From a virus: a DNA stretch of 43,380 bases. The DNA is taken from IMG/VR virus record IMGVR_UViG_3300002461_000266, positions 1 through 43,380 of that record; one strand, 5' to 3'. Both the position numbers and the translations under genes were made by a program. The notes beneath the pieces were generated by a model, which saw only the letters and a list, made by a program, of their open reading frames with translations, was not told the origin of the DNA and ran no database searches. Shown here in pieces: positions 1,038 to 22,404 of the stretch. How positions within the stretch are numbered: the first letter of the stretch is position 1; every line of letters begins with the position of its first letter.

Positions 1038-1040
1038 CGC

Positions 1041-1619: not shown

Positions 1620-1631
1620 TTACCGCCTCCT

Positions 1632-2207: not shown

Positions 2208-2216
2208 GACTTCTCC

Positions 2217-2453: not shown

Positions 2454-2466
2454 GTCTTGTCTCCTT

Positions 2467-2496
2467 CAAAACCCCCGAGGGCCGAAGCCCCCGGGG
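2467..2496 (-). terminator. Rho-independent terminator after the capsid/decoration genes
   Basis: On the minus strand: CCCCGGGGGC-TTCG-GCCCTCGGGGG followed by TTTTG. That is a 10-bp GC stem (one G.U), a TTCG tetraloop and a U-tract, 10 nt after the stop of 2506..3009. Confidence 0.75.
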
Positions 2497-2505
2497 TATC
2501 GTGGG

Positions 2506-3009
2506 TTACTCGCCCTCGACGTAGGCCAGCTTGAGGAACACGGTCCCCGAGCCAGTGGCGGCGTTGCGGGTCACGGTGATGTCGTAGTCCACCCGCGGGT
2601 CGCTGGACAGGCCGAGCTGTTGCCACAGGGGCTTGGCGCGGTCGTCGATGGCAACCACAGCGGATTCGTAGGTGACATCCGTGAGCGCCACCGCAGCGGT
2701 GTCGGTGTCCACTGCCGACGCGAAGAAATCCGCGTCAACAACAGCGCCGCCATCCGCCGTGGTGCGATACAGCCCGATGTCGACCGTGCCGCCGGTGCCC
2801 AGGTCGTCTGACGCGAACTTGAGGCTGTCGACCAGCGCGGCCGAGTTGACACGAATGACCCGGGCGACACTGGTTGCGTCACTGGACGCAAACTCCGCGA
2901 CGCCAGCGGCAAAACGCAGCTTGCCGCCTTTTTCGAGCTGGTTGGTCTTGACGACCGGAGTTGCGTCCAGGTCGGTGATGATTTGCGATTTAACGTTTAC
3001 AACGGCCAT
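2506..3009 (-). CDS. Candidate capsid decoration/cement protein (167 aa)
   Basis: ATG at 3009 after GGGAGAA, 16 nt after the major capsid stop, and followed by the strong terminator, so it is co-expressed at capsid level. The function is inferred from position only. Confidence 0.55.
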   Translation of the reverse strand: MAVVNVKSQIITDLDATPVVKTNQLEKGGKLRFAAGVAEFASSDATSVARVIRVNSAALVDSLKFASDDLGTGGTVDIGLYRTTADGGAVVDADFFASAVDTDTAAVALTDVTYESAVVAIDDRAKPLWQQLGLSSDPRVDYDITVTRNAATGSGTVFLKLAYVEGE

Positions 3010-3024
3010 GATGTGTTCTCCCGA

Positions 3025-3918
3025 TTAGATCTGGTCGTCGCAGGAAACGCGAACCTGCTTGCCCAGTTGCGTGCGGGTGGCACCAAGCGTCATCGCCAGG
3101 TAGACTTGGGTCGCGTGACCTTTGTCATTCCGTTCGGTGATCTTGGCAGTGACGCCGTCCCACATGCCCAGGTGCATGCCGCTCTTGAGCCAGATCGGAA
3201 TCAGGCGGTTGCCGCTGGTGATCGTCAGGCGCTCGGTGATGATGAAGTTCACACCCATGAACTTCGCCACCTTGCCGTCGACCAGGACCGCGCTGTTGCC
3301 GTAGTCCTTGTTGACGATCTGCATTTCCTTGAGCAGCGCGTCGTGCTCGTAGCTGGAGATCGCGCCGTAGACCGGCTCCATCAGCTCGCCCTTGTTGGCG
3401 GTCATCAGGATACGGATGACGTTCTGCAGCTTGGCGACGTTGATGCTCGATGCCGTGCCGCCGACGTTCACGCCCACATCGTAGGTGCCGGAACCGACGG
3501 TGCCGAAGCTCTCGGTCGTGGTGCCGTTCTCGCCGGTGTAGTTGGTGCCGAAGATCGCGGCCAGAATCACGTCGTCCATGACGCGGTTCATGGCGGCTGC
3601 GCCGGCCATCGCATACGGGCTGGTAAGCTCGATGATGGTGCGCAGACGGTCCTGATTGTCGATCAGGCTCGCCCACTCGTAGTCCTTCGGGAACACCCAG
3701 CGTTTGTCTTGCGACAGATCCAGAAGCGGGGTGTCGGCGTGGCGGCTGGTGCGCTCGACGGCGGTCGCCTCGCCAAACTGTTCGACCACGCTCGCGGCCT
3801 TGCCGACGTAGGAGCCGACAGTGACGGCGTTGCGCAGCCGGGAATCCTGTTGCTGCAGGAGCATTTCGACATTGGCCTTGTACTGCTGGACCGATGCCGT
3901 GGTGATTGCGTCAGGCAT
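3025..3918 (-). CDS. Major capsid protein (297 aa)
   Basis: The track ORF 3025..3930 starts at TTG. The ATG at 3918 has GGAGGG 5 nt upstream. It sits after the scaffold gene. The N-terminal pattern (QQYKANVEMLLQQQDSRLRNAV...TSRHADTPLLD...ASLIDNQD) is one I recognise from podovirus HK97-fold capsid proteins. Confidence 0.85.
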   Translation of the reverse strand: MPDAITTASVQQYKANVEMLLQQQDSRLRNAVTVGSYVGKAASVVEQFGEATAVERTSRHADTPLLDLSQDKRWVFPKDYEWASLIDNQDRLRTIIELTSPYAMAGAAAMNRVMDDVILAAIFGTNYTGENGTTTESFGTVGSGTYDVGVNVGGTASSINVAKLQNVIRILMTANKGELMEPVYGAISSYEHDALLKEMQIVNKDYGNSAVLVDGKVAKFMGVNFIITERLTITSGNRLIPIWLKSGMHLGMWDGVTAKITERNDKGHATQVYLAMTLGATRTQLGKQVRVSCDDQI

Positions 3919-4075
3919 GATGCCCTCCAAATTGTTGATTTCAAGTCAGTTTTCACCGATCTGGCTGGTGAGCGCCGGCTTGTCTCAAAACTTCGAGGGC
4001 CAGTAAGGTTGCCGCTATGCGGGGGCTTTCACCTTGTCCGCGCGGTTCTCCTACAACACAATGATACCATGCTGC

Positions 4076-4255
4076 TTATTTTTTCCCGGGCAGCCCCAAG
4101 GTTCCTGCCTTTTGATTCGATTTTATCCAGTCGAACCAAAGAGTTGCATTTGCCAGCACGCCAGCGGCGAAGCCTTCGACGTGAACGGTCGGGTGCTTCG
4201 CCGCGGCTTCGATACACCGCAGTTTGATTTCTTGGTCAGGTGTCAGGTCGGCCAT
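4076..4255 (-). CDS. Hypothetical small protein (59 aa; below ORF-track cutoff)
   Basis: My translation: MADLTPDQEIKLRCIEAAAKHPTVHVEGFAAGVLANATLWFDWIKSNQKAGTLGLPGKK. The ATG at 4255 lies 7 nt after GGAG and 3 nt after the scaffold stop. Confidence 0.5.
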   Translation of the reverse strand: MADLTPDQEIKLRCIEAAAKHPTVHVEGFAAGVLANATLWFDWIKSNQKAGTLGLPGKK

Positions 4256-4258
4256 CGC

Positions 4259-5128
4259 TTACTCCGGATACATGACCTTGAACCAGGTCGTCTGCTTGGC
4301 GTGCGCCGCCTTGTGGCCGGGGTGCTGCGGATCCTTGAGCGCAGCCACGAAGTTCGGGTCGAGCTTGGACTGCTCCCACTGGGCTTTCGCCTCGGCCGGG
4401 GTCAGCATGCCGTCGAACTGCGGAGTCTTGCCGCCGTTGGTCACCAGCCCGTCCTCGCCCAGCTTGGCGCCGATCTCGGCCAGCAGCTTGTAGGTGCCGG
4501 CGTAGCCGACCGTCTTTTCGATGCCGTCGATCATCTCGGGCGTGAAGCCGAGGGTCTGCGCCGCGGCCTTGGCCTTGGTCATCATCCGGTCGTGCCCGCC
4601 CTTCCACTCGTCGAGCAGCGCGGCTTTGTCGGCCTGGACGTTCAGTTCGTAGTCCTTGGCTTGTTGCTCTGCAGCAGCGGTCAGCATTGCGTTGTATTTG
4701 CCCACCAGCACGTCGGCCTGGCTCTTGGTGACGTTGGCTTCGTGCAGGATCTGCTGCATGCCTTTGGCGAAGCCCTCGTCCACCTTGGCGTCCTTGGGCA
4801 GACCGAGCTTCATGTCGTAGGCGTCCGGCTTCTCGGGCATGCCGAGCTTCTGGAACACCTGCCGCATGCCGTCCGGGTCGTCTGCGCGGGGCATGACGAG
4901 CAGCTGATCCGGGCTGCGGCCAATCAGCTTCTCGGCACCCTGGTAGGACTTGATGACGTCGGCCGGGCCTTGCCAGCCCTTGTTCTGGATGTACTCAACC
5001 GCGCTCGGGTCGGTCAGGCCGTGCCACGGGGTTTCCGCGGTCGTCGCGGCAGTCGTGGTTGTGGCCGCCGCAGTGGTGGCGGTCGCGGCGGTGTCCGCCG
5101 TGGTCGTTGCAGTCGCTGCTTCGGTCAT
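4259..5128 (-). CDS. Scaffolding protein (289 aa)
   Basis: Located between portal and capsid as in T7 gp9. It is helical and charged (K/E/A-rich), with a low-complexity Thr/Ala N-terminus. No enzymatic motif was seen. Confidence 0.8.
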   Translation of the reverse strand: MTEAATATTTADTAATATTAAATTTTAATTAETPWHGLTDPSAVEYIQNKGWQGPADVIKSYQGAEKLIGRSPDQLLVMPRADDPDGMRQVFQKLGMPEKPDAYDMKLGLPKDAKVDEGFAKGMQQILHEANVTKSQADVLVGKYNAMLTAAAEQQAKDYELNVQADKAALLDEWKGGHDRMMTKAKAAAQTLGFTPEMIDGIEKTVGYAGTYKLLAEIGAKLGEDGLVTNGGKTPQFDGMLTPAEAKAQWEQSKLDPNFVAALKDPQHPGHKAAHAKQTTWFKVMYPE

Positions 5129-5283
5129 AAGCCTAACTCCTTTAAACCTTCAATAAAATCAAGAGGATGCAGGTGGTTCATGCACTTGGAATCGCCGTAT
5201 ATGCAATTCCGGAAATCGTGGTGAAAATGCAACACGAAGTTGCAGGTCGTCTCGGTCAGCAGCTCGATGCCGTCACGCCACAT
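5125..5283 (-). CDS. Hypothetical Cys/His-rich mini-protein (52 aa)
   Basis: Internal ATG of track ORF 5125..5358. The start overlaps the upstream stop (TGATG) and the stop overlaps the scaffold start (ATGA). Sequence: MWRDGIELLTETTCNFVLHFHHDFRNCIYGDSKCMNHLHPLDFIEGLKELGL. The DNA is visibly AT-richer than its flanks. Confidence 0.5.
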   Translation of the reverse strand: MWRDGIELLTETTCNFVLHFHHDFRNCIYGDSKCMNHLHPLDFIEGLKELGL

Positions 5284-5567
5284 CAGCCTTCCCTTCCGTC
5301 GTAGATGGCCCACAGCCGGTCCGGCGGCAGGTTCAGGTGATTGGCGATCCGCAGCCACACTTCGCGCCGGCCTTCCGCCATCGCGTGCGCCCGGTCGTCG
5401 ACGTGGAACGTGGACTGGTTGGCCCGGCAGAAGCGCGCCAGGTCGCGCAGCACTTCATCGGCCAGCGGCCCGCGGAACGTGGTCTGGTAGGCGTAGCGCC
5501 TGCGGAACAGCCAGCGTTTCGCCTGCTCGATAACCTCAGTCAAGGCTTGACGACTCGCATCGTACAC
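5283..5567 (-). CDS. Conserved podovirus head-module protein (94 aa; resembles the Bbp19-type small proteins between portal and scaffold)
   Basis: GTG start at 5567. The motif run FRGPLADEVLRDLARFCRANQSTFHVDDRAHAMAEGRREVWLRI resembles a family I recall from BPP-1-like phages. This is memory-based only. Confidence 0.65.
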   Translation of the reverse strand: MYDASRQALTEVIEQAKRWLFRRRYAYQTTFRGPLADEVLRDLARFCRANQSTFHVDDRAHAMAEGRREVWLRIANHLNLPPDRLWAIYDGREG

Positions 5568-5750
5568 TCGAACTCCATGATGATGTTGTTCAGGTGTTTC
5601 ATCTTCCAGGCAAGCTCGGGGTCGTTGGCGTCGACGCCCTCGTCGAAAAGATACTTTACACGGGATTCAAGGTAAAAGTCAACACCCAGATATTTCCAGA
5701 ACGGCGTCAGAATTTTGCCCTGCGCCCGCCACTACCAATGTTAAGCCGCA

Positions 5751-7388
5751 TCAAGCAGGCATCGCTTTCGCAAGTCCGGCCACGGCCGGCGCGGCTTCGA
5801 TCATCTGCTGCGCCTGCGCCTGCTCTGCGCGCTGCTCCCGGATTTTCATCACGTCCTCGATCGACCGGGTCCACGCGGTCGGCGCGCCCTGAATGTCGAG
5901 GATGTCCGGCATCGCCTGGTCGAAGTTGAAGAAGTCCAACGGCGCTGGGTCGCCCGTGTTCTTGGCGTAGTTCGCAGCCACGTCCAGCGCCCGCATGAAG
6001 CCCGCAGCCTTCTCGGACCGCTGCATGCGCGACATCGGGCTGTCGTACTCGATAAAGTATTCCGCCGCCTCGCTGTCCCGCAGGATGGCCGGCACCGGCG
6101 GCACCAAGCCCTGCTGGAACATCAAGTCCAGCTCGCGCTCGATCATCGCGCCCAGGAACTCGGCCTGCAGGCGGCCAGCGGTCGGGGCGATCAGCATGCC
6201 CTTCTCCCGCGCCCGCTCCAACACTTCGGTCGCCGTCATCTGCGGCGTGTCGATCAGGATCTGGAACAGCGTGATCAGGAACGCGTCGTTGATGACCGAC
6301 CGCTCCATCTCCATCAGTTTGTCGCCCACCGCGATGTTGCCTGTGGGAAGCACGTCCACCAGCCGCTTGCCTTCCGCGGTCATGGTGCCGGGGTTCAGGT
6401 GTCCGGGCTTCAAGCTGAACGAACCCAAATTGCCATCGTCGTGCGCCAGCAGGACCGGATCCACAACCCTATGGCCCTGCTTCAGGATCGTTTTCTTTTC
6501 CTCGTTCAGCACCTTGATGGCCGGCAGCACCCACTGCGCCGGGCCACGGCCGTACGTCTCGCCTGAGGCTTGCGTGTAGCGCGCGGTCGGCAACGGAAAG
6601 CTGTTGAAGCCGGATTCGCGCAGTTCGTCCTGCGTCTGCTTCAAGATGTAGAGCGAGGCAAAACGCATACCCTTGGCGTCCACACGCCGGGGGTCCGCGT
6701 CGTTCCTCGGATAGACGCAGTGCAGGACTTCCAGCTTCTGCTCGGCCTGCGTCGGGTTTTTCAGTTTCTCGCGCACATGCTCGGGCACGGTGTCGCCCGG
6801 CTTGTTGAACATCTGCACGATTTGCCTGGCAGACAGGAAGAACGCCCGGTAGAACGTGTCGACAATGCCAGCATGGTTCTCGACGAGATACACTTCGCCC
6901 AGATGGATGTTCCGATAACGCAGCCCCGGCATGTCGTCCGGCTGGTCAACGAACAGGCAGCCGGTGCCATAGACGCCGAGGCCAAGGTAGACCTGCTGGC
7001 TGTTGCCCACGAAGTTCGCCACCGGGCGATAGCGCAGGTTATAGAGTCGTTCGTTCAGTTCATCGAAGAACAGCCGCACTGCGCGGTTGCGCTTCAAGGT
7101 CTTGTCGGCGGGCACCAGCCGGTGCCAGTTCTGCGACTGCGGTGTGGCCAGCGACTCCATGACTGCGGAGAACCGCTGCGCGGCGATGCCGACCGTCGCG
7201 TCGTATTGCAGTTCGGTTTTCTTCTGTCCGCTCGCGCCGTGCGCGTTGTCCATGCCGTAGGACTGGAACGAGTTGCGGTGCGACGGCACGATCAGGGATG
7301 CCGCCTCCTCCCACTGCGCGTTCCAGTTGCCGCGGTCCTGCCGCAGCGAGTCGAGGCGCTGGATGTGGAATTGGGTCTTGTCGGTCAC
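5751..7388 (-). CDS. Portal (head-to-tail connector) protein, T7 gp8-like (545 aa)
   Basis: Size and position (after terL, before scaffold) fit. Overall sequence character matches the T7-type Head-tail_con family. The GTG start overlaps the upstream stop (GTGA). Confidence 0.9.
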   Translation of the reverse strand: MTDKTQFHIQRLDSLRQDRGNWNAQWEEAASLIVPSHRNSFQSYGMDNAHGASGQKKTELQYDATVGIAAQRFSAVMESLATPQSQNWHRLVPADKTLKRNRAVRLFFDELNERLYNLRYRPVANFVGNSQQVYLGLGVYGTGCLFVDQPDDMPGLRYRNIHLGEVYLVENHAGIVDTFYRAFFLSARQIVQMFNKPGDTVPEHVREKLKNPTQAEQKLEVLHCVYPRNDADPRRVDAKGMRFASLYILKQTQDELRESGFNSFPLPTARYTQASGETYGRGPAQWVLPAIKVLNEEKKTILKQGHRVVDPVLLAHDDGNLGSFSLKPGHLNPGTMTAEGKRLVDVLPTGNIAVGDKLMEMERSVINDAFLITLFQILIDTPQMTATEVLERAREKGMLIAPTAGRLQAEFLGAMIERELDLMFQQGLVPPVPAILRDSEAAEYFIEYDSPMSRMQRSEKAAGFMRALDVAANYAKNTGDPAPLDFFNFDQAMPDILDIQGAPTAWTRSIEDVMKIREQRAEQAQAQQMIEAAPAVAGLAKAMPA

Positions 7389-7564
7389 CGGCTGCTCCGG
7401 ACGCGGACTTCGTTGTTCTGCCGCGGCGTCACGCTGCCGCGCAACTGCTCAAGGCGAAAGTATCCAGCGGCCAGCGGAGCCACACCTTCGCCCGGATTCT
7501 CCGCGGGAACTGCGGCGGACAGCTTGGCTATGCGTGCCGCCACCCGCTCGTTGTGCTTTTTCAA
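7385..7564 (-). CDS. Hypothetical small protein (59 aa, TTG start; below ORF-track cutoff)
   Basis: My translation: (M)KKHNERVAARIAKLSAAVPAENPGEGVAPLAAGYFRLEQLRGSVTPRQNNEVRVRSSR. The TTG overlaps the upstream stop (TTGA) and its stop overlaps the portal GTG (GTGA). Confidence 0.4.
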   Translation of the reverse strand: MKKHNERVAARIAKLSAAVPAENPGEGVAPLAAGYFRLEQLRGSVTPRQNNEVRVRSSR

Positions 7565-7773
7565 CCCAGCAACTCTCGGGAGGCAAACCCCCGAAAACGA
7601 GGAGAGCGCACACTGCGATCTTCTTCCACCGGATCAGGTGTCGCCATCCGGTCCCGTTTTCGGGTAATGAATGTCGCCGCCCAGCTGCCGGACACGTCCG
7701 GCGCCGGCGCAGTAGTTTGCCGACCTTGCGTTGCGGCGCGATACCGCTCAGACCAATGCGTTCCGTTTGTCAT
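7561..7773 (-). CDS. Hypothetical small protein (70 aa)
   Basis: ATGA overlap with the upstream gene. Its C-terminus FASRELLG repeats the AASRELMG C-terminus of 7770..8009 using different codons, which argues for selection at the protein level. Confidence 0.6.
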   Translation of the reverse strand: MTNGTHWSERYRAATQGRQTTAPAPDVSGSWAATFITRKRDRMATPDPVEEDRSVRSPRFRGFASRELLG

Positions 7774-8009
7774 CCCATCAGCTCCCTTGACGCTGCTCGT
7801 TTTTTGGAGGCTGTCAGGCCGCGCATACGCTGCTCCTCCTCGGCCAGCAGGCCGCCACCCGCAATGGTCGACGCCCGACCTCGGGCCTTGGAATCCGCCA
7901 CCGCCGCGCGCTCGGCTTCCAGGCGCTGCGCTTCGGCCGCCGAATTGTCGGGGGCCACTGGCACCGGCTGCGGCGCAGGCATGCTGGGCTTGCTGAACAA
8001 ACCGCTCAT
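7770..8009 (-). CDS. Hypothetical small protein (79 aa), between terL and portal
   Basis: ATG at 8009 after GGAGGA. It has a Pro-rich N-terminus, a charged helical middle and the C-terminus ...KKRAASRELMG. Confidence 0.7.
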   Translation of the reverse strand: MSGLFSKPSMPAPQPVPVAPDNSAAEAQRLEAERAAVADSKARGRASTIAGGGLLAEEEQRMRGLTASKKRAASRELMG

Positions 8010-8040
8010 ATCGAACTTCCTCCTACAACCAGATTACCAT

Positions 8041-8103
8041 GTCACAAAAACCACCCTGTTTTTGTGACATGAACTGAAACAAAAGGCGCCCTGTTTTTGT
8101 TTC
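8041..8103. repeat. Two tandem, related AT-stem hairpins sharing the 12-nt core CCCTGTTTTTGT
   Basis: Hairpin 1 (8041..8068): gtcacaaaaa-ccaccctg-tttttgtgac, a 10-bp stem. Hairpin 2 (8076..8103): gaaacaaaa-ggcgccctgt-ttttgtttc, a 9-bp stem. Both lie in the 98-nt gap between the terL stop (8108) and the next start (8009). Confidence 0.85.
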
Positions 8104-8107
8104 AAAA

Positions 8108-9679
8108 TCAATCCACCCCCATCCAGTCGGACGTGCCCTCGACCTTCCGGGCCTGCGAGTGGCGCACGTCGTCACGCCGCGGCGGGTTGACCTCGAAGGT
8201 GCAGGCCAGCGCGTCCGCATCGTCCGGAGACGCCACGCCCCGTCGCTTCATCGCGTCCTTTGTCTCCAGGATTTTCTTGCTCTCCTCCCGCCCGCTCCAT
8301 GTCCAGCCCCGGTCGGTCAACTGCTGAGACAGGGAACCCTTCTCGCCCCCGTCGTTCTCGATCATCCCGCCCGGCAGCCAGTCCCGCACCATCGACCAGA
8401 GTTCGATCGCGTGGGTCGCGTACTCGGTGCCCGGCCGGTGCGCGGAATCCCCGAACTTGACGACGTGCAACCGCCCGTGGGTTTTCTTGCGCTTGACGAT
8501 GTCAATGACGCCGGTGCCCATGCCAAAGTCGATGCAGATCGCGTCGGGCCGATACTTCTGGTCGAGGTCAAGCACCTTCTGCGCGATTTGCACGTTGTCC
8601 AGCCCCAGCCAGTGTCCGTGCGTCGCCGTGCCGCAGCAGTCCCGTGCGTTGCGCCCCTGCCGGAATCGCCATGAGGTCTTGCCCCGCGGTGCCGGGTCGA
8701 TGCCGAGGATCAGCGGCTCGCCGTAGTCCCGCACCAGATCGTTCTGCTGCGCCGCACGAACCGCGTCCCACGGAATAAACTGATCTTCGCTTGTCCGCGG
8801 CGCCAGCCCCATGATCTCGACCCGCACGAAGTCCGAGTCCTCGCCATACCGCTTGATCTGGTCCTCGACGATGGTCTGGTCCACACCCTCCATACCGCGG
8901 GTCGACAGGGTGCGCAGATCCCAGCCGTGGCCCATCTTCGGGTCGTTGAACAACTCGAAGAAGCGACCCTGGCGGGAACGCATTTGCGACGCGGCCATCC
9001 AGAACCGATAGGGGTTTTGCTCGGTGAAGAAGCCCTCGGACACGTCCCAGATTTCACCGGGGATGCCGGCGGCCTCGTCCATCTGCAGCAGGAGGCCGTA
9101 GGGGTTGTGGACACCCGCGAAGGCGTTGGGGTTGTCGGCGGACCAGGTCTGCCCTTGGCAGAACCAGTACTTCGGGTCGATGCCAAGGCCGCCCTCCTCG
9201 GGGAGCTTGCGCACCAGGTCCAGCAGCCAGCCCTCCGGCACAATCCGCATCGTCTCGAGCGCGAACCAGTGGCTGTTGATGGCCGCACCGAACCAAACGG
9301 CAAATTCTGGAAACGTGCGGGAGCGCAGCTGCCCTTCGGTGTTCGCGGTGACGATGGTGGTCGACCCGATGTGGGTGCTCATGTGCCAATGGGCGGCCAT
9401 GCCGAACTTGGCGGACTTACCCGGACCGCGCCCTGAACTCCGGGCCTCGCGCCACATTTTTAACGGCATGCCGTTTTCGTGGCGGAAAACCTGTTCCTGG
9501 ACGTGGTCGGTGAGCCGCAGGAAATCGTCCAGCTGCCAGCGCCTCGGGGCCTTGTAGTTCTCGAAGGCGGTGCCCGGCCGTTGCCAGGGGTAGGCGTAGT
9601 GGACGAACTGGTAGGGGTCATCGCGCAACGCCAGTATCTGCGCCATGATCTCCGCTTCGTGCTGGGGTGAACCTCTCAT
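8108..9679 (-). CDS. terL: Terminase large subunit (523 aa; alternative start at 9646)
   Basis: Walker A-like SGRGPGKSA and Walker B-like LLLQMDEAAG, with a C-terminal nuclease-type region. The ATG at 9679 overlaps the endonuclease VII stop (ATGA). The ATG at 9646 has GGAGA 4 nt upstream. Confidence 0.92.
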   Translation of the reverse strand: MRGSPQHEAEIMAQILALRDDPYQFVHYAYPWQRPGTAFENYKAPRRWQLDDFLRLTDHVQEQVFRHENGMPLKMWREARSSGRGPGKSAKFGMAAHWHMSTHIGSTTIVTANTEGQLRSRTFPEFAVWFGAAINSHWFALETMRIVPEGWLLDLVRKLPEEGGLGIDPKYWFCQGQTWSADNPNAFAGVHNPYGLLLQMDEAAGIPGEIWDVSEGFFTEQNPYRFWMAASQMRSRQGRFFELFNDPKMGHGWDLRTLSTRGMEGVDQTIVEDQIKRYGEDSDFVRVEIMGLAPRTSEDQFIPWDAVRAAQQNDLVRDYGEPLILGIDPAPRGKTSWRFRQGRNARDCCGTATHGHWLGLDNVQIAQKVLDLDQKYRPDAICIDFGMGTGVIDIVKRKKTHGRLHVVKFGDSAHRPGTEYATHAIELWSMVRDWLPGGMIENDGGEKGSLSQQLTDRGWTWSGREESKKILETKDAMKRRGVASPDDADALACTFEVNPPRRDDVRHSQARKVEGTSDWMGVD

Positions 9680-10011
9680 TGCGACTCTCGGTGCCGGCGC
9701 AGATAGCCTACCGCAAGCAGCAGCGCGGCTTCGCTATCTCGAAAAAAGCCCAAGCCCAAATTACAAGCACGGCACAGCACGCCTCGAACGCGGCCTGTGC
9801 GGTGGTCGTGATCCCCGTGCCAGCCTTTTTCGCCCGGGCTGTCCGCGCCACACACCGCGCAGCGCCCGCCTTGCTCGGCCAGCAGGCGATCCCTTTCCGC
9901 ACGCGACAGGCCCGAGTGCCGGCTCACTCGCTTGGCTTTGGCGCGCAATCGTTGCGCGCGCACTTTGTCTGGATTTTCTTCGCGCCAGCGGCGCTGCGCT
10001 TCCCCACTCAT
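9676..10011 (-). CDS. Recombination endonuclease VII-family nuclease (111 aa)
   Basis: Signature CAVCG...(x12)...HGDHDHRTGRVRGVLCRACNLGLG matches the Endonuclease_7 pattern (C-x2-C ... DHDH-x-TG-x-RG-x-LC-x2-CN). Confidence 0.85.
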   Translation of the reverse strand: MSGEAQRRWREENPDKVRAQRLRAKAKRVSRHSGLSRAERDRLLAEQGGRCAVCGADSPGEKGWHGDHDHRTGRVRGVLCRACNLGLGFFRDSEAALLLAVGYLRRHRESQ

Positions 10012-10023
10012 GTAACCAGTCTA

Positions 10024-10106
10024 CCATCCGCGCACCGCCAGCCTTACGGCTTGGCGGATGCGGACGGATGGCGGCAAAACCGGATGAAAGCGGATGCGGA
10101 CGGATG
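10024..10106. repeat. CGGATG array (5 copies), a duplicated 17-mer and a long imperfect hairpin in the HNH/EndoVII spacer
   Basis: GCGGATGCGGACGGATG occurs at 10054..10070 and 10090..10106. CGGATG occurs at 10055, 10065, 10081, 10091 and 10101. The left arm ccatccgcgcaccgccagcc (10024..10043) pairs with ggcttggcggatgcggacggatgg (10048..10071), about 20 bp with 3 bulges and a ttac loop. Confidence 0.85.
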
Positions 10107-10107
10107 C

Positions 10108-10581
10108 CTAGGTCAAGCCGCGCGCCCTTATGCTGTCCGCAGCCGCGAGAATCCACTGCCGGACTTCGTTCGTGGAAAAAGCGTTCTTGGCGACGTTTGC
10201 CATGTGGCTTGTCCATTGCAGGTTTGTGATGTCGTGATCCCCGCCCAGCGACACCGGCAGTTTGTGGTCTAGGTGCGGCGTCCCCTCTACCGGCAGCCCG
10301 GTAATAGCACAACACCCCTCCTGCTTTTTCCAGAGAGTAAGGAGTTGCTCCAGCGAGGGCCGCGGGCCAGCACTGCGCTTGCGCAAAGATTTCCGCGCCT
10401 GCCACACCCAGTAAAGATCCTTGTCGAGCCACGCCGGCGGTTTCGCCGTCTTGCGATGTTTTCGCTCGTAGTCCTTGCGGCAGTAGTAGCACTTTCCTTC
10501 CAACGTGCGTTTGTAGGGATGCCCGTGCTTGCAAGGCTCACCGACAGGGTGGGTGTTTCCGTGGACTTTTTGCGGGGTCAT
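10108..10581 (-). CDS. HNH endonuclease (157 aa)
   Basis: C-terminal HNH motif: CCAITG...HLDHKLPVSLGGDHDITNLQWTSHMANVAKN. The N-terminus is Cys/His-rich (CKHGHPY...CYYC). Confidence 0.9.
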   Translation of the reverse strand: MTPQKVHGNTHPVGEPCKHGHPYKRTLEGKCYYCRKDYERKHRKTAKPPAWLDKDLYWVWQARKSLRKRSAGPRPSLEQLLTLWKKQEGCCAITGLPVEGTPHLDHKLPVSLGGDHDITNLQWTSHMANVAKNAFSTNEVRQWILAAADSIRARGLT

Positions 10582-10600
10582 GCCTTATTGTAGCGCCCCC

Positions 10601-10640
10601 TAAACTTTTTGCGTAATTATTTTTTTATAATTTTTAAAAC
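10601..10640. promoter_or_regulatory. Isolated AT-rich tract just upstream (minus sense) of the HNH gene; possible promoter/UP element or unwinding element
   Basis: taaactttttgcgtaattatttttttataatttttaaaac is striking in an otherwise GC-rich genome. On the minus strand, TTACGC-N18-TACAAT can be read, ending 6 nt before the HNH ATG. Confidence 0.4.
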
Positions 10641-10719
10641 ACGGTCGACGAGCACTACACCGAACAAACGCTCGCGGACGAAAACCCGACCCGTGCCGGG
10701 TGTGCGCCCCCGCCTCTGA

Positions 10720-10771
10720 AAAATCAAGGGATCGGCCGCGCACCAGGCTCTGCGCCCAGCAAAATCAAGGG
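10720..10771. repeat. 11-bp direct repeat AAAATCAAGGG x2, 41-bp period
   Basis: Copies at 10720..10730 and 10761..10771 in the 320-nt gap between terS and HNH. A second pair, TGTGCGTGC, lies at 10844..10852 and 10872..10880. Confidence 0.85.
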
Positions 10772-10901
10772 GTTAGCGATTTGACATAATACACGTTATG
10801 CGCGTTGCACCGCAGCAACATGAATAGAATCAATGAGTTAGGCTGTGCGTGCGGCTTGGGTGCGGGCTGAATGTGCGTGCTGCAGTGCGATTGCGCGCCA
10901 G

Positions 10902-11420
10902 TCAGTAGAGGTCAGCGGCTTTGAGGATTTCAGCAGTCAAGGCTTGCTGCGTGTGTGCGCGGATGTTGTCGTCGCCGGTATTACTAAAGGATCCCTCAAT
11001 GACTCTGCCCTGCTTTGCGGCCGCCAAACGCGCGTTAGCGTCCTGGATGATTTTGGTGAGGTCCACAGACTTCACGTTAATATCTGCCCTTGTGCGCTGG
11101 CCAAAGCGTTCGGGGTCGCGTTTCTCGGCAATCCATTGATAAGCCGCAATCTGCACACGCGCGGCCTTAGCGTCTTTGCCGGCATTCTCGGCAGCGTCTA
11201 AGGCTTTATCAAAAAAAGCCTCGGCACTTTCCTTTAACGCGTCATACCATTGCGCGCGGCGTTCGGGATCAAAGCTCCAGTATTGCCAGAGCTGGCCGCG
11301 GTTGATGCTGTAATGCTCGCAGGTGCGGTCCACACGCGCACCGTTGCGCACGCGCTCCAGAATGTCGGGCCAAGCCTCTGCGATGCGCTGGCGCGTTTCT
11401 GCGCCCATTGGAGTGCTCAT
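10902..11420 (-). CDS. terS: Terminase small subunit (172 aa)
   Basis: First gene of the late arm. It has an N-terminal HTH-like region and the motif AAYQWIAEKRDPERFGQRTRADIN, typical of small terminases (W-x-x-E-K-R-x-P-E-R/K-F/Y-G). Confidence 0.75.
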   Translation of the reverse strand: MSTPMGAETRQRIAEAWPDILERVRNGARVDRTCEHYSINRGQLWQYWSFDPERRAQWYDALKESAEAFFDKALDAAENAGKDAKAARVQIAAYQWIAEKRDPERFGQRTRADINVKSVDLTKIIQDANARLAAAKQGRVIEGSFSNTGDDNIRAHTQQALTAEILKAADLY

Positions 11421-11512
11421 GAGTCCAGATTACCACGACAGCGCGCGGCGCCCGGAACGACGCGCCACAATCAAACAGCGGCCAAGCCTCCGTTCGCTGG
11501 GTTTCCGCGGCT

Positions 11513-11558
11513 GTCCGGTTTGGGGAAGGACATTAGTCCTTTCCCCACCAATCCGGAC
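11513..11558. promoter_or_regulatory. Nested palindrome in the divergent early/late control region
   Basis: The inner element GGGGAAGGAC-atta-GTCCTTTCCCC (11522..11546; 10 bp, one bulge) is flanked by GTCCGG (11513..11518) and CCGGAC (11553..11558). There is no U-tract on either strand, so it is not terminator-like. Confidence 0.7.
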
Positions 11559-11561
11559 ACC

Positions 11562-11591
11562 TGACAGCCGCAGAATAAACCGTGCTATACT
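11562..11591 (+). promoter_or_regulatory. Candidate sigma70-type early promoter (extended -10)
   Basis: TGACAG (11562..11567) - N18 - TATACT (11586..11591), with TGC immediately upstream of the -10. It lies about 50 nt before the first + strand gene. Confidence 0.4.
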
Positions 11592-11642
11592 GTCTATTAG
11601 TAGTTTGAATCATCTATATAGACACTTGGATAAAGGATCGAC

Positions 11643-12011
11643 ATGCCCAACAAAATCGCTGTACCTGATCCGGATGCAAAGCTTGGCGAATACGTGCCAG
11701 GACTGGCGTTATATTTGCTGGATGCACGCGAAGAATATCCTCTGTACAGAGACGTAAAACTGATTGCAGCCACGCCTTGTCTGCTGGGGCGGCGCACTGC
11801 GCGACTGTCGTGGATTGTCCACGAACAGCGGTTCAAAAGAGGTGGCGCGGCTTGGGCACTCTCGCAGGATAACCCGGCCCTTATGGCGTGGTGCGCGGAG
11901 CAATGCGCCGAGTTTTTGACGCTGGAATACCTGCAGGAAATGTACGACTATACGGAACAAGATATAGCACGTTTGGTTGAAACAGAGACGGCCAAATACC
12001 GCAAGAAATAA
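11643..12011 (+). CDS. Hypothetical early protein (122 aa); first gene of the rightward arm
   Basis: ATG at 11643 after AAGGA; followed by a hairpin terminator. Confidence 0.8.
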   Translation: MPNKIAVPDPDAKLGEYVPGLALYLLDAREEYPLYRDVKLIAATPCLLGRRTARLSWIVHEQRFKRGGAAWALSQDNPALMAWCAEQCAEFLTLEYLQEMYDYTEQDIARLVETETAKYRKK

Positions 12012-12032
12012 TAAATCCTAAGTCATTGATTA

Positions 12033-12060
12033 AAGGGCGTTTCGGCGCCCTTAATTATTT
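12033..12060 (+). terminator. Candidate rho-independent terminator
   Basis: AAGGGCG-tttcgg-CGCCCTT followed by aattattt (an interrupted T-tract), 22 nt after the stop at 12011. Confidence 0.55.
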
Positions 12061-12086
12061 AAGCCGTAAATAATTAAACAAATCGC

Positions 12087-12116
12087 TTGACATCATCCAA
12101 ACTGTTATAGCATTAT
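12087..12116 (+). promoter_or_regulatory. Candidate sigma70-type promoter
   Basis: TTGACA (12087..12092) - N18 - CATTAT (12111..12116). Confidence 0.45.
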
Positions 12117-12161
12117 CCGAATCAGCAGCACTTGTACAACCCACTGAATGGAGACTTGAGA

Positions 12162-12362
12162 ATGAACGCTACCCACTGCAAATCCGGTAAATGCTATCAA
12201 GTAACGGCGCTGCGCAAACCTGAATATCTTGCCGTTGGCGAGGTTTACCGCGCCACTGGCGGCGGCGACGCGTTAGGCATGCACCGCGTCGCTGACGGCG
12301 CTGGCACGTACCTGCGCCGTTGGGATCAAACCTTTGTTGATGTTGTTGAGGTGCAATCGTGA
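12162..12362 (+). CDS. Hypothetical early protein (66 aa)
   Basis: The track ORF starts at TTG 12132. The ATG at 12162 has GGAGA 7 nt upstream. Confidence 0.65.
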   Translation: MNATHCKSGKCYQVTALRKPEYLAVGEVYRATGGGDALGMHRVADGAGTYLRRWDQTFVDVVEVQS

Positions 12363-12441
12363 CCCTTATCCTGATCGCCTGCACTATCACTGGTTGGTTT
12401 CTGGCCCAGCCTATAATTCACACGCTGCGGAGGATTTGAGC

Positions 12442-18726: not shown

Positions 18727-18938
18727 CCAGCAAAGCCGAGGAACTGTGGGAGAAATACGCCATTGATGAAATGATTGACCGTGCGCCATTCCTCGCCGCC
18801 CTCCGCGAGTACGGCGCAGAGGTCAGGAAAAAGGATGCGGAGATAGCGCGTGAGTTACATACCGGAGAGCAAGACGACATCACGCGAGACGCAAAACACA
18901 AAAGCGCCGCCGCCATCGAGCGGGAGGAGTTGCCGTGA
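18723..18938 (+). CDS. Hypothetical protein (71 aa)
   Basis: ATGA overlap with the upstream stop. Confidence 0.7.
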   Translation: MTSKAEELWEKYAIDEMIDRAPFLAALREYGAEVRKKDAEIARELHTGEQDDITRDAKHKSAAAIEREELP

Positions 18939-19411
18939 TTATCGGAATCGACCCCGGACTGTCCGGCGCCGTGTGTCTGTTGGACGGCGAGCGCCTGGAG
19001 GTGTTCGACCTGCCGACGACCGAGCGTGTGGTTAACGGCAAGACCAAACGGCAGCTGGACCTGCACAGCCTGGCGAACGATCTGCGCTGCTGCCCGCTGG
19101 CCCGGATCCGCTTCGTGCTGATCGAGCAGGTATCTGCCATGCCGGGCCAAGGCGTGACCAGCAGCTTCAACTTCGGCTTCACGGCCGGCGCCATACAGGG
19201 CGTGGCTGCGGCGTTGGGGTTCCCGCTGCGCACCGTCCACCCGCAGGTCTGGAAGCGCAAGTTCGGCCTCCTGGGGCAACCCAAGGACGCCAGCCGGGCG
19301 GAAGCCAGCCGCAGGTTCCCGGCCTACGCCGACCAGTGGCCGCTCAAGAAGCACGACGGTCGGGCGGAAGCGGCCCTTATTGCGCTTTTTGGTTCTATGA
19401 CGGATAATTAG
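18935..19411 (+). CDS. RuvC-like Holliday-junction resolvase (158 aa)
   Basis: GTG after GGGAGGAG. IIGIDPGLSGA (first catalytic Asp), VLIEQV (Glu) and HDGRAEAALIA (C-terminal acidic/His) fit the phage RuvC pattern. Confidence 0.85.
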   Translation: MIIGIDPGLSGAVCLLDGERLEVFDLPTTERVVNGKTKRQLDLHSLANDLRCCPLARIRFVLIEQVSAMPGQGVTSSFNFGFTAGAIQGVAAALGFPLRTVHPQVWKRKFGLLGQPKDASRAEASRRFPAYADQWPLKKHDGRAEAALIALFGSMTDN

Positions 19412-19425
19412 CCATGATGATCCAA

Positions 19426-19503
19426 CTGTGCGTAGCTCAGTCTGGTCAGAGTTCTCGGTTTGGAACCGAGGGGTCGTAGGTTCGAATCCTACCGCACAGA
19501 CCA
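19426..19503 (+). tRNA. tRNA-Pro(UGG): tRNA-Pro, anticodon UGG, CCA encoded
   Basis: Hand-folded cloverleaf. Acceptor: CTGTGCG/CGCACAG. D arm: GCTC-agtctggtca-GAGT. Anticodon arm: CTCGG-ttTGGaa-CCGAG. Variable loop: gggtc. T arm: GTAGG-ttcgaat-CCTAC. Discriminator A, then CCA. Confidence 0.9.
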
Positions 19504-19519
19504 TTTTAGTGAGGCAAAA

Positions 19520-20719
19520 ATGAACGTAATCAAAATTGACGGCGGGCTGCCAATCAAAGCGTGGACCGACGGCGTGCCTGTGGAAGATGCGGCCTTGAAA
19601 CAACTGCACAACCTGTCGCGGATGCCGTTCGCTTACTCACACATTGCGGTGATGCCCGACGTTCACTGGGGAATGGGCGCGACGGTAGGGAGCGTCATCG
19701 CCACGAAAGGCGCGATTATCCCGGCTGCGGTTGGGGTGGACATCGGTTGCGGAATGATGGCGGTGCGCACGAGCCTGCGCGCTTCCGATCTTCCCGACAA
19801 CCTGCACGGTGTGCGCAGCGCGATCGAGGTCGCGGTCCCGCACGGCCGCACCGACAACGGTGGGATCAACGATCGCGGCGCGTGGGGGCACGACAATTTT
19901 GGCCCGTGGTATGGCGCGTTGACGAAGATCGCCGCCAAGCACCCGAAGCTCGAACGCGCCGCGCAGCGAGCGCCCCGCCACATCGGCACGCTCGGCACCG
20001 GAAACCACTTCATCGAGTTGTGCCTCGACGAGTCGCAAGACGTGTGGATCATGCTGCACTCAGGCAGCCGTGGCATCGGTAACGCGATCGGCAGCTACTT
20101 CATCGAGAAGGCCAAGGAGGACATGCGCCGTTGGTTCATCAACCTGCCGGATATCGACCTTGCCTACCTGCCGCAGGGTTCCGAGAACTTCGGCGACTAC
20201 GTAGAAGCCGTGCATTGGGCGCAGGGGTACGCCCTGGCGAACCGCGAGGCGATGATGGACGCCACGCTCAACGCGCTGCGCGTGGCGCTCGACCGCGAGA
20301 TTGAACCGTTCGAGGAAGCCGTCAACTGCCACCACAACTACGTGTCGTGGGAGCGCCACTTCGGCGAGAACGTCATGGTGACGCGCAAGGGCGCCGTGCG
20401 GGCCGGTGAAGGTGATCTCGGCATCATCCCCGGCAGCATGGGGGCCAAGTCCTTTATCGTCCGCGGCAAAGGCAACCGAGACAGCTTTTGTTCCTGCTCC
20501 CACGGCGCCGGTCGGGCGATGTCTCGCGGCGAAGCCAAACGGCGATTCACCTTGGCCGATCACGAGGCGGCGACGGTTGGGGTTGAATGCCGTAAGGATG
20601 CAGAGGTCATCGACGAAACGCCAGCCGCTTACAAGCCAATCGACGCTGTCATGGCTGCGCAGTCCGATCTGGTTGAGGTTGTTCACACGTTAAAGCAAGT
20701 TGTGTGCGTAAAAGGCTGA
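19520..20719 (+). CDS. rtcB: RtcB-family RNA 3'-phosphate/2',3'-cyclic phosphate ligase (399 aa)
   Basis: Signatures HSGSRGIGN, NCHHNY, GSMG and SCSHGAGR. The true ATG is at 19520, after GAGG. The track start at 19460 is a TTG inside the tRNA. Confidence 0.95.
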   Translation: MNVIKIDGGLPIKAWTDGVPVEDAALKQLHNLSRMPFAYSHIAVMPDVHWGMGATVGSVIATKGAIIPAAVGVDIGCGMMAVRTSLRASDLPDNLHGVRSAIEVAVPHGRTDNGGINDRGAWGHDNFGPWYGALTKIAAKHPKLERAAQRAPRHIGTLGTGNHFIELCLDESQDVWIMLHSGSRGIGNAIGSYFIEKAKEDMRRWFINLPDIDLAYLPQGSENFGDYVEAVHWAQGYALANREAMMDATLNALRVALDREIEPFEEAVNCHHNYVSWERHFGENVMVTRKGAVRAGEGDLGIIPGSMGAKSFIVRGKGNRDSFCSCSHGAGRAMSRGEAKRRFTLADHEAATVGVECRKDAEVIDETPAAYKPIDAVMAAQSDLVEVVHTLKQVVCVKG

Positions 20720-20720
20720 C

Positions 20721-20858
20721 ATGCTCCACTACTGCCCGAAGTGCCCCGTCAAGAAGCTGCTGGTGTGGCAGCAAAGCAAGCTCCGCTACTACTGCCCGAA
20801 CTGCCATCGGAATTTCACGTTGCGCGAAGTCGTGCTGGTCAAAGGAGGGAAGGAATGA
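20721..20858 (+). CDS. Zinc-ribbon micro-protein (45 aa; below track cutoff)
   Basis: MLHYCPKCPVKKLLVWQQSKLRYYCPNCHRNFTLREVVLVKGGKE, with two CPxC knuckles. The ATG lies 1 nt after the rtcB stop. Confidence 0.55.
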   Translation: MLHYCPKCPVKKLLVWQQSKLRYYCPNCHRNFTLREVVLVKGGKE

Positions 20859-20986
20859 CCAATGATTTCGTTCTGATTCTGGTGGGCTACGGAGTAATGA
20901 TGATGGGGTTGCCCAAGCCTGTGCGTTTCTTCTGCGGTTTGATCCTCATGTTGGTCGCTGCGCTGGCGGCTTGGATAAAAGCATGA
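20855..20986 (+). CDS. Membrane micro-protein (43 aa)
   Basis: MTNDFVLILVGYGVMMMGLPKPVRFFCGLILMLVAALAAWIKA; ATGA overlap, after GGAGGGAAGGA. Confidence 0.55.
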   Translation: MTNDFVLILVGYGVMMMGLPKPVRFFCGLILMLVAALAAWIKA

Positions 20987-21192
20987 ACGATCCAGTCAAC
21001 CATCCGAAGCACTATACGTCGCACCCGAGCGGTATCGAGTGCATCCAGGTCACCGAGCACATGGGCTTCAACCTCGGCAACGCGTTCAAGTACATCTGGC
21101 GCGCGGACCTGAAACACGACGCCATCGAGGACTTGAAGAAAGCCGCGTGGTATCTGCAGCGCGAGATTGCCAAGCGCGAGGCGGCTAAGTGA
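20983..21192 (+). CDS. DUF3310-family (SaV-like) phage protein (69 aa)
   Basis: NHPKHYTSHPSGIECIQV...GNAFKYIWRADLK...DLKKAAWYLQREI matches the DUF3310 pattern (P-x-HY ... G-N-x-x-KY-x-x-R ... DL-x-KA-x-x-Y). ATGA overlap with the upstream stop. Confidence 0.75.
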   Translation: MNDPVNHPKHYTSHPSGIECIQVTEHMGFNLGNAFKYIWRADLKHDAIEDLKKAAWYLQREIAKREAAK

Positions 21193-21335: not shown

Positions 21336-21532
21336 ACTACATCCTCCTGCTGTTCCTGACCGGGCAGCCCGTGCAGCAGGTCGGGCCGTTCGACAACGTC
21401 TTCGCTTGCGAAAAAGCCGCGGAGCAGGCCAAGCTGGCCAGCGCCCGAGCGGTTTCAGCTAGGGCAGGCGTGGCGTGCGTGAATTTGAAGGCCAAGCCGC
21501 ACCACTGGAACGGGAAGCCGGTGCCGAAATGA
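21332..21532 (+). CDS. Hypothetical small protein with hydrophobic N-terminus (66 aa)
   Basis: MNYILLLFLTGQPVQQVGPF...; ATGA overlaps at both ends. Confidence 0.55.
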   Translation: MNYILLLFLTGQPVQQVGPFDNVFACEKAAEQAKLASARAVSARAGVACVNLKAKPHHWNGKPVPK

Positions 21533-22404
21533 GCGCCGCCAAAGAGTTGATACGCCAGTACGAACGGGAGCGCAAAGCAGAGTGGCGCGCAGTCAGCAAG
21601 GACTCCACCAAAGGCAACGTGCCTATGAACCCGGTGATCGACTTGGGCATCAAGGTGCCGAAGAACGGGTTGAAAATTGCGGTGATTCCTGACGTGCAGG
21701 CCATGCCCGGCGTCGATCTGAGGCACCTGACTTGGTGTGGCAAGTATCTGGCTGACAAACGCCCGGACGTGATCGTCTGTATCGGTGACTTTGGCGACTT
21801 TCCGAGCTTGTCCCAGTTCGGCCGCGGCAAGCTGGAGTTTGAGGGTCGGCGCTACAAGAAAGACCTGTCCGCTTTCCACGAAGCAATGGGCCTGCTGCTG
21901 ACCCCGATCCACAAGGCGCAGGGCTACAACCCGTACTTGATATTCACCCACGGCAACCACGAAAGCCACATCGAGCGCGCAGCCAACGAGGATCCCCGTC
22001 TGGAAGGTCTGCTGTCCTTGGGCGACCTGCGCCTGGCCGAGTATGGCTGGCAGGCGTTCCCGTTCTTGCAGCCGGTGGCCATCGGTGGCGTGGCGTTCTG
22101 CCACTACTTCCCCAGCGGCGTGATGGGGCGGCCGATCACCACGGCGGCGGAACTGCTGCGCAAGCTCCACATGAGCGCCTTTGCCGGCCATCAGCAGGGC
22201 AGAGACATCGCCTTCGGGCGCCGTGCCGATGGCGGGCACATGACAGCTATCATCAGCGGGTCGTTTTATCAGCACGCCTACGCTTACCTCAGTCCATTCA
22301 CGAACGCCCACTGGCGAGGCATGTATTTCCTGCACGAAGTCAAAGACGGGCACTTTGACGAGATGGCTTTGAGCATCAACTTTTTGCAGCGGAGGTACGG
22401 GTGA
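21529..22404 (+). CDS. Calcineurin-like metallophosphoesterase (291 aa)
   Basis: Motifs VIPDVQ (motif I, with Gln where His is usual), IGDFGDF (GDxxD), THGNHES (GNHE), FCHYF and AGHQQG. Internal ATG of track ORF 21475..22404, with an ATGA overlap. Confidence 0.85.
   Translation: MSAAKELIRQYERERKAEWRAVSKDSTKGNVPMNPVIDLGIKVPKNGLKIAVIPDVQAMPGVDLRHLTWCGKYLADKRPDVIVCIGDFGDFPSLSQFGRGKLEFEGRRYKKDLSAFHEAMGLLLTPIHKAQGYNPYLIFTHGNHESHIERAANEDPRLEGLLSLGDLRLAEYGWQAFPFLQPVAIGGVAFCHYFPSGVMGRPITTAAELLRKLHMSAFAGHQQGRDIAFGRRADGGHMTAIISGSFYQHAYAYLSPFTNAHWRGMYFLHEVKDGHFDEMALSINFLQRRYG

Follow-up and report, generated by a model that had tools for sequence, protein, structure and literature searches.

The stretch of viral DNA analysed here, the IMG/VR record IMGVR_UViG_3300002461_000266 at its full length of 43,380 nucleotides (the window), contains a gene for tRNA-Pro(UGG) that is closely followed on the same strand by rtcB, the gene for an RNA ligase of the RtcB type. 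An earlier sequence-only reading had described a 78-nt cloverleaf with encoded CCA, lying 14 nt behind the stop codon of a RuvC-like gene and 16 nt ahead of the ATG of a 399-aa open reading frame (ORF), with a Shine–Dalgarno (SD) sequence GAGG inside the 16-nt spacer, and had interpreted the pair as a module for the repair and replacement of tRNAs. The observation was confirmed to the base, and the interpretation is partly supported, as set out below. The coordinates are collected in Table 1.

Table 1. Features at the junction of the tRNA-Pro(UGG) gene and rtcB in the window.
Feature	Position	Strand	Remarks
RuvC-like resolvase ORF	18935..19411	+	PHROG 1770 Holliday junction resolvase, E = 8e-34; also phrog_159; TAG stop 19409-19411
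5' leader, 14 nt	19412..19425	+	resolvase stop to tRNA; presumed RNase P cut 19425/19426
tRNA-Pro(UGG), 78 nt, CCA encoded	19426..19503	+	ARAGORN; Rfam RF00005
anticodon loop UUUGGAA	19459..19465	+	anticodon UGG 19461-19463; position 37 (19464) is A
spacer TTTTAGTGAGGCAAAA, 16 nt	19504..19519	+	U-rich trailer right after CCA; SD GAGG 19511-19514, 5 nt before ATG
rtcB, 399-aa RNA 3'-phosphate/5'-hydroxyl ligase	19520..20719	+	PF01139; ATG at 19520

The only tRNA that ARAGORN detects in the window is tRNA-Pro(TGG). The Rfam covariance model RF00005 matches it over the full length with every stem paired and gives 66.4 bits (gathering score 29; E = 2e-12); this is the sole match in an Rfam scan of the window. 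The discriminator A73 and the encoded CCA occupy positions 19500–19503. As read from the sequence, the phage tRNA has C1-G72, A73, G35, G36 and G15-C48, which form the identity set of the bacterial prolyl-tRNA synthetase (ProRS; PMC9976931). Bacterial tRNA-Pro has a conserved G37, which is methylated to m1G37 by the essential enzyme TrmD (PMC9643105); the phage tRNA has A37 instead. This is a departure from cellular tRNA-Pro and no argument against tRNA function.

The protein encoded by rtcB matches profile PF01139 at positions 1–426 of 426 with 436 bits (cutoff 27; E = 2.4e-130) and belongs, as judged from its sequence, to the RtcB family. The signatures named in the earlier reading are present, HSGSRGIGN at residues 180–188, NCHHNY at 269–274 and SCSHGAGR at 325–332. 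The active site was aligned to the solved RtcB structures of P. horikoshii and T. thermophilus. Residues D74, C77, H163, H180, H272 and H328 of the phage protein stand opposite D95, C98, H203, H234, H329 and H404 of the P. horikoshii enzyme, so that the proposed alignment of catalytic residues came out in agreement for all six. We take the first five of the P. horikoshii residues to be metal ligands and H404 to be the guanylylated histidine; H328 is the predicted GMP-histidine of the phage enzyme. The predicted catalytic H163 is accompanied by N162. The RtcB of the window is 70–77% identical to chromosomal RtcBs of Alpha- and Betaproteobacteria, and identical copies are encoded on two metagenome contigs, one of them from an activated-carbon metagenome. 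Homologues of RtcB occur in 704 of 50,697 deposited phage records. By these features both parts of the pair, tRNA and RtcB, look functional.

For comparison, rtcB loci were gathered regardless of tRNAs from 80 viral contigs, the five closest protein relatives and bacterial genomes (80 loci); dereplication left 161 loci. Individual loci are cited below by L numbers. A tRNA gene is located within 150 nt of rtcB in 25 of them. Among the 32 flanking tRNAs, 16 are specific for Pro, seven for Lys and three for Glu, Lys, a classic target of anticodon nucleases, thus being the second commonest neighbour. Only nine of the 200 other tRNAs in the same loci are tRNA-Pro (Fisher P = 3e-10; this and the following enrichment statistics ignore the shared ancestry of the loci). 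Loci with adjacent Pro are found at no fewer than 11 scattered positions on the RtcB tree. In stretches with a sole tRNA, this tRNA is Pro in every case in which it touches rtcB (L029, L041, L048, L050 and the window), and when it is set apart from rtcB it is never Pro but Ile, Phe, Val or Cys. The preference extends to two distant RtcB clades, with the qualification that their seeds were picked because the pairing was present, which is a bias. In clade B (39% identical to the window enzyme), Pro(UGG) accounts for six of 10 flanking tRNAs against one of 28 in the background (P = 5e-4), and in clade C (28% identical) for three of eight against three of 75 (P = 0.01). Rfam confirms the tRNA calls at 38–70 bits, except for a doubtful one in L061.

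The neighbourhoods of the pair are otherwise unrelated. With rtcB masked, the ±5-kb flanks of 19 paired loci have 0–1 ORFs in common; the three to eight common ORFs indicated by a six-frame comparison were rejected as an artefact of shadow ORFs over conserved rtcB DNA. The adjacency of tRNA and rtcB is strongly non-random, far above background, and the pair is the only conserved unit in these surroundings. Its conservation across unrelated genomes argues for a common process in which both genes take part.

The Lys/Glu arrangement is restricted to a single RtcB subclade (L023, L026, L027, L060). Here tRNA-Lys(CUU) precedes rtcB, and three of the four loci have tRNA-Glu(CUC) behind it. Each of the two is the C34 isoacceptor of a family in which the U34 member is a classic target of anticodon nucleases.

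At the junction itself the spacer contains the ribosome-binding site and nothing else. Between tRNA and rtcB, no promoter-like or terminator-like site was found on the + strand, and a search for regulatory structure by folding of positions 19400–19570 gave the tRNA only (z = −0.62). SD-only spacers of 13–24 nt occur in seven loci, among them L003, L021, L026, L029, L041 and L050, and flanking tRNAs of related loci are co-oriented with rtcB in 41 cases and opposed in three. Because of the SD-only spacer, the lack of a promoter- or terminator-like site and the prevailing co-orientation, co-transcription of tRNA and rtcB is the simplest reading, which supports the common transcript context claimed earlier. 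Across the loci, the position of tRNA-Pro varies from 14–54 nt upstream to 0–64 nt downstream of rtcB, and it is occasionally found on the opposite strand.

In many loci the tRNA abuts the ribosome-binding site of rtcB, and it might therefore be mainly an element for processing and stabilisation that determines where the rtcB mRNA begins and yields some tRNA-Pro besides. RtcB would then act on RNA other than tRNA, either rRNA cut by colicin E3-like or MazF-like toxins or mRNA. Bacterial RtcB does re-ligate 16S rRNA after cleavage by MazF or colicin E3 (PMC9304027; also Temmel 2017 as cited in PMC10272220), and most rtcB-bearing phages have no tRNA next to the gene. However, any tRNA would serve as punctuation, yet Pro dominates, and a tRNA downstream of rtcB or on the opposite strand, as in several loci, does not suit such a role. 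The phage protein also scores 136.2 bits with the PrfH-linked RtcB model TIGR03073, below its cutoff of 271.8, and no PrfH is present in the gene table of the replication block. We regard this explanation as quite improbable.

The window holds the minimal form of the arrangement, one tRNA and no array, whereas its relatives L043 and L204 have tandem arrays of 29 and six tRNAs. L204, whose RtcB is 82% identical, is a different phage with an integrase, RecT/YqaJ and a TROVE/Ro60-domain gene within positions 1–12400; its array is headed by Pro(UGG) and begins 495 nt after rtcB. This locus is a viral counterpart of the bacterial Ro60–RtcB association. The array order Pro(cgg)-Val-Val-...-Arg-Arg-Arg-(Leu)-Lys-Thr is repeated, completely or partially, in the viral locus L043 and in the alphaproteobacterial metagenome-assembled genomes (MAGs) L219, L224 and L229, where rtcB borders the array on one side or the other. 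In L242 and L277, MAGs from Terriglobales and Candidatus Sulfotelmatobacter (Acidobacteriota), a tRNA-Pro(tgg) lies 33 nt after rtcB, and the full order in L277 is Pro(cgg)-rtcB-Pro(tgg).

A decayed tRNA-Pro was found in L034 (6180–6256), where it starts 2 nt after the rtcB stop codon. Its 5' two-thirds are intact and the T arm is lost, so that Rfam gives 23.6 bits (threshold 29); over 45 nt it is 95.6% identical to the tRNA-Pro upstream of rtcB in L062. This relic indicates that the linkage of tRNA-Pro and rtcB was once wider and is able to decay.

Such remains bring up the possibility of a linkage by history or mechanics, with no function specific to proline. An ancestral rtcB may have stood at the proline edge of a mobile tRNA array, of which small phages kept that edge, or the widespread phage tRNA-Pro may have been a portable stretch of homology that carried rtcB along by recombination; the tRNA would then add to the supply and RtcB would be a general RNA repair enzyme. 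The recurrent array with rtcB at an edge fits this explanation, as do the order in L277 and the resemblance of the L034 relic to an upstream tRNA-Pro. The upstream-type tRNAs look like one family of 77–78 nt with the loop YUUGGAA, and tRNA-Pro of the A37 type abounds in viral contigs that lack rtcB. A neutral relic would not, however, be expected to keep tight spacing and co-orientation. The pairing recurs with RtcBs of just 28–39% identity and at many separate positions on the tree, and history does not account for a sole tRNA that is always Pro when it touches rtcB and never Pro at a distance. We consider a purely historical linkage unlikely; if it were the case, the locus would be an ordinary accessory cassette.

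The unusual A37 was followed in the same material. It is present in 15 of 17 rtcB-adjacent tRNA-Pro genes of a first sample, in all nine tRNA-Pro genes of clades B and C, and in more than 115 viral tRNA-Pro genes. As a mark of rtcB-linked tRNA-Pro it was rejected: tRNA-Pro(UGG) with A37 is abundant in viral contigs, and just five of 115 sampled genes are near rtcB. It is not universal in phages either, as the tRNA-Pro of T4 carries G37. A37 thus characterises a large subset of the tRNAs of environmental phages and does not mark the rtcB module. It is not restricted to proline: in viral loci L003–L202, A37 prevails by 39 to 8 in Leu(UAG) and by 6 to 1 in Arg(CCG). Pro(UGG) and Pro(CGG) of these loci mostly have A37, the Pro(UGG) count being biased by the pattern used to fetch L083–L202. 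Their E. coli counterparts differ: m1G37 is carried there by Leu(UAG) and by the remaining Leu and Arg isoacceptors of the m1G37 class (PMC9643105). Our literature search found no paper that describes A37 in viral tRNAs of the m1G37-class families. Viral A37 in such tRNAs may reflect independence from TrmD or evasion of nucleases. The latter fits the published idea that phage tRNAs change the anticodon loop to escape nucleases (PMC10264068). In the former case, phages may avoid dependence on the essential methylation by the TrmD of the host, which normally guards proline codons against frameshifting.

The genome around the pair is complete. Bases 1–95 of the window recur exactly at 43286–43380, and this end repeat indicates a circular assembly and thus a complete genome of about 43.3 kb (43,285 bp); the G+C content of the window is 61.6%. 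The structural genes (portal, capsid, terminase, tail and internal virion proteins) are on the − strand. A + strand block at about 11.6–30.6 kb consists of small early genes and replication genes, the latter for the RuvC-like resolvase, an SNF2 helicase, a PD-(D/E)XK nuclease, a single-stranded DNA-binding protein, PolA and a Prim-Pol/AAA_25 primase-helicase (a 611-aa ORF that comprises Prim-Pol plus AAA_25 in a domain scan). The portal is 49–52% identical to the portals of the ~42–43-kb Ralstonia podophages RpY1, DU_RP_II and C22, and the window is a complete podovirus-like genome. Deposited phages include no close relative at the DNA level and no match spanning the tRNA–rtcB junction. In RpY1, the nearest cultured relative, the gap from the RuvC-like gene to the helicase gene is about 530 nt, and the phage has neither tRNA nor rtcB. 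The corresponding interval of the window measures 3.4 kb and holds the tRNA, rtcB, small ORFs and a metallophosphoesterase gene; from this difference, the cassette sits in an accessory insert.

The position of the cassette in the early/middle (replication) gene block would also suit a phage that has to mend damage of its own making. In this variant repair and replacement are the same, and the damage comes from the takeover by the phage, through degradation of host RNA and tRNA or through a phage nuclease. One proposal holds that degradation of host tRNAs drives lytic phages to acquire tRNA genes. The Pfam and PHROG matches in the window, however, contain no recognisable candidate RNase; they comprise replication and structural genes, the metallophosphoesterase, an endonuclease VII and a weak HNH-like match. 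Self-inflicted damage also leaves the choice of proline unexplained, and we find it improbable as the source.

Two genes downstream of rtcB were considered as further partners of the module and rejected. A 45-aa ORF at 20721–20858, which begins 1 nt after the rtcB stop codon and has two CxxC pairs (zinc ribbon, weak Pfam matches), has no homologue adjoining rtcB in any other fetched locus. A calcineurin-type metallophosphoesterase is encoded at 21475–22404 (phrog_221, E = 5e-43), 750 nt downstream of rtcB; L037 and L070 are the only other loci with a homologue less than 5 kb from rtcB, and a role in healing RNA ends would be speculative. The third gene after rtcB, a DUF3310 ORF (20971–21192), matches Mycobacterium phage DNA at 82–86% identity from about 20995 to 21148. 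The match covers about 140–154 nt and concerns hypothetical genes in some 19 Mycobacterium phage records (OkiRoe, Gengar, Larva and others). For phages whose hosts are so distant, this DNA identity is unexpectedly high.

Phage tRNAs are classically explained by codon compensation. If it applied here, or if the tRNA were the remnant of an attachment site, the adjacency to rtcB would be a coincidence. In 12,686 codons of likely phage genes, the Pro codons are CCG (59%), CCC (24%), CCU (9%) and CCA (8%); the tally covers phage genes only, which leaves codon compensation some room. CCA plus CCU reach 23% in the early genes of the + strand against 12% in the structural genes, a difference in favour of compensation. 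The cognate CCA is nevertheless the rarest Pro codon, which makes simple compensation a weak explanation for Pro(UGG), and its frequency is not below that of other codons that end in A and have no tRNA in the phage. The phage side of the tally proposed earlier therefore does not single out a UGG decoder. In E. coli, each of the four CCN codons is read by Pro(UGG) with modified U34, and no other Pro isoacceptor is essential (PMC9643105); one such gene could thus cover the whole proline codon box.

For an attachment site it may be said that relatives such as RpY1 are temperate. The tRNA of the window is full-length and canonical, however, and no integrase domain was found in the Pfam gene table or the scanned ORFs of the complete genome. 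An attachment-site remnant was rejected on this ground, in line with what the earlier reading had concluded. Since the adjacency is also strongly non-random, we hold codon supply or an attachment-site remnant, with rtcB nearby by chance, to be very improbable as the whole explanation.

Our preferred reading is that tRNA-Pro(UGG) and rtcB form a co-transcribed accessory module of two genes that sustains translation when tRNAs are cut in the course of infection. We rate the chances that this is correct as roughly even. A long + strand transcript would be cut by RNase P at the 5' end of the tRNA, and RNase E or exonucleases would cut the U-rich trailer after CCA. Such processing would release a ready-made tRNA together with an rtcB mRNA with a short leader. 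The host ProRS would charge the phage tRNA which, with U34 modified as in bacterial tRNA-Pro(UGG), could read all four CCN codons and stand in for the codon box. With A37 this tRNA could do without methylation by TrmD, escape recognition by a nuclease that reads the anticodon loop, or combine the two advantages. Cuts by metal-independent anticodon nucleases and toxins produce 2',3'-cyclic-phosphate or 3'-phosphate ends and 5'-OH ends. RtcB, using GTP and Mn2+ and passing through a His328-GMP intermediate, would reseal the former to the latter. The source of the RNA damage, the substrate of RtcB and the processing steps are inferred, and most likely the attacking nuclease would be a host defence or toxin. 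Phage tRNAs can indeed rescue infection from tRNA-cutting defences, and they carry loop changes proposed to evade nucleases (PMC11555353, PMC10264068).

A narrower version of this module would explain the choice of proline. Since there is one essential proline isoacceptor, Pro(UGG) is a weak point of translation. An undiscovered nuclease, a defence system or toxin widespread in Proteobacteria and other hosts, might cut host tRNA-Pro and leave cyclic-phosphate ends; tRNA-Pro(UGG) would then be the selected partner of RtcB, a single replacement gene for the entire CCN box that A37 renders immune, independent of TrmD or both, with the adjacent ligase resealing what was cut. We put this forward as a tentative proposal that is rather doubtful as it stands. 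If it were true, the cassette would be a genomic marker usable to find that nuclease. A loose link between tRNA-Pro quality control and Rtc exists in E. coli, where deletion of ybaK, the gene for Cys-tRNA-Pro deacylase, is listed among the mutations that induce the rtcBA operon (PMC9650030).

Several observations speak against the preferred reading of a repair-and-replace module, in addition to the neglected shared ancestry, the choice of the clade seeds and the scope of the codon tally given above. About 80% of the related rtcB loci are without an adjacent tRNA. The two closest RtcB relatives, in L203 (89%) and L206 (80%), have no tRNA at all, and in both rtcB overlaps the preceding ORF; these tRNA-less relatives imply that RtcB does not need the tRNA. 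No tRNA lies beside rtcB in the five cultured RtcB phages PHB04, pf16, phiCbK, RP12 and Lacusarx, and no cultured carrier of the cassette was found. Starting from the tRNA, a pattern scan found rtcB in the fetched stretch for five of the 115 viral A37-type tRNA-Pro(UGG) genes (about 4%). The pairing is a recurrent option and no necessity, and each gene exists without the other. The literature searched yielded neither a nuclease specific for tRNA-Pro nor an experiment on any phage RtcB. What stands of the earlier interpretation is that the parts are intact and the pair is conserved; it is weakened by the lack of a tRNA-Pro nuclease in the literature, and its concept had already been in print.

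The concept of repair and replacement by phage RtcB and tRNAs is indeed published (PMC7824862, PMC5648845, PMC13313380, PMC8421152). The minimal, proline-specific module and its recurrence across three RtcB clades appear to be undescribed in the literature searched, in which we found no link between RtcB and tRNA-Pro. If the proposed function is true, it would be the first defined role for the RtcB genes annotated in sequenced phages (roughly 700). Functional proline specificity would in addition predict a class of nucleases directed at tRNA-Pro and a way to find such nucleases.

Among the known systems, phage tRNA clusters with RtcB are similar in having a ligase of this family beside phage tRNAs. 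RtcB in or near the tRNA clusters of jumbo phages (PMC7824862), Sphingobium phage Lacusarx (PMC5648845) and Rhodococcus Cluster CB phages (PMC13313380) has been read as a means to repair tRNAs cut by RNase effectors, with the phage tRNAs as resupply. There, as here, the reading is inferential. Their genomes measure 94–300 kb and have 11–30 tRNAs in loose linkage, and Lacusarx has no tRNA within 2.5 kb of rtcB, whereas the window has a single tRNA 16 nt from rtcB in a 43-kb genome.

Cellular counterparts share the enzyme family. The bacterial operons rtcBA and rsr-yrlBA-rtcBA are controlled by RtcR (PMC7790460) and are likewise linked to tRNA halves with cyclic-phosphate ends. RtcA, RtcR, Ro60/TROVE and Y RNA were not seen in the gene table around rtcB in the window, where Rfam finds the tRNA only, and expression presumably follows the programme of the phage. 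In Anabaena, translational stress brings long tRNA arrays and rtcB under common regulation (PMC8421152, PMC10272220). Spare tRNAs and rtcB are thus tied by neighbourhood and regulation there too, and the authors propose upkeep of the tRNA pool under attack by toxin RNases. The Anabaena system is cellular, with up to 43 tRNAs and the repressor TrcR; that of the window is viral, with one tRNA in a common transcript context.

The closest functional parallel on the repair side is T4, in which Pnkp and Rnl1 reseal the anticodon-loop break made by PrrC in tRNA-Lys and so rescue translation. The likeness is one of function, not of family: the T4 enzymes are unrelated to RtcB, a kinase-phosphatase healing the ends and an ATP-dependent ligase joining 5'-P to 3'-OH, whereas RtcB seals 3'-P and 5'-OH ends directly with GTP. 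Neither a polynucleotide kinase-phosphatase nor an ATP-dependent RNA ligase was found in the Pfam table of the window (9.5–29.2 kb) or in the scanned ORFs, the small ORFs being partly scanned. No tRNA gene is fused to the repair genes of T4, which serve tRNA-Lys; the T4 system is experimentally proven, and the module of the window is predicted from its sequence.

On the replacement side, the tRNA-Tyr of T5 counters Retron-Eco7 (PMC11555353), and mycobacteriophage tRNAs show variants of the anticodon loop (PMC10264068). These too are tRNAs supplied by the phage, and a loop change, in the window from G37 to A37, could make a poor nuclease substrate; they have no linked ligase, and the target countered by the window would be proline. 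With PrrC, PARIS, retrons, HEPN proteins, Cas13, Cas12a3 and Schlafens, cleavage of tRNA is emerging among the commonest anti-phage strategies. Two answers of phages to it are known, resealing as in T4 and replacing as in T5 and others, and the tRNA-Pro–rtcB locus would combine both in the smallest package.

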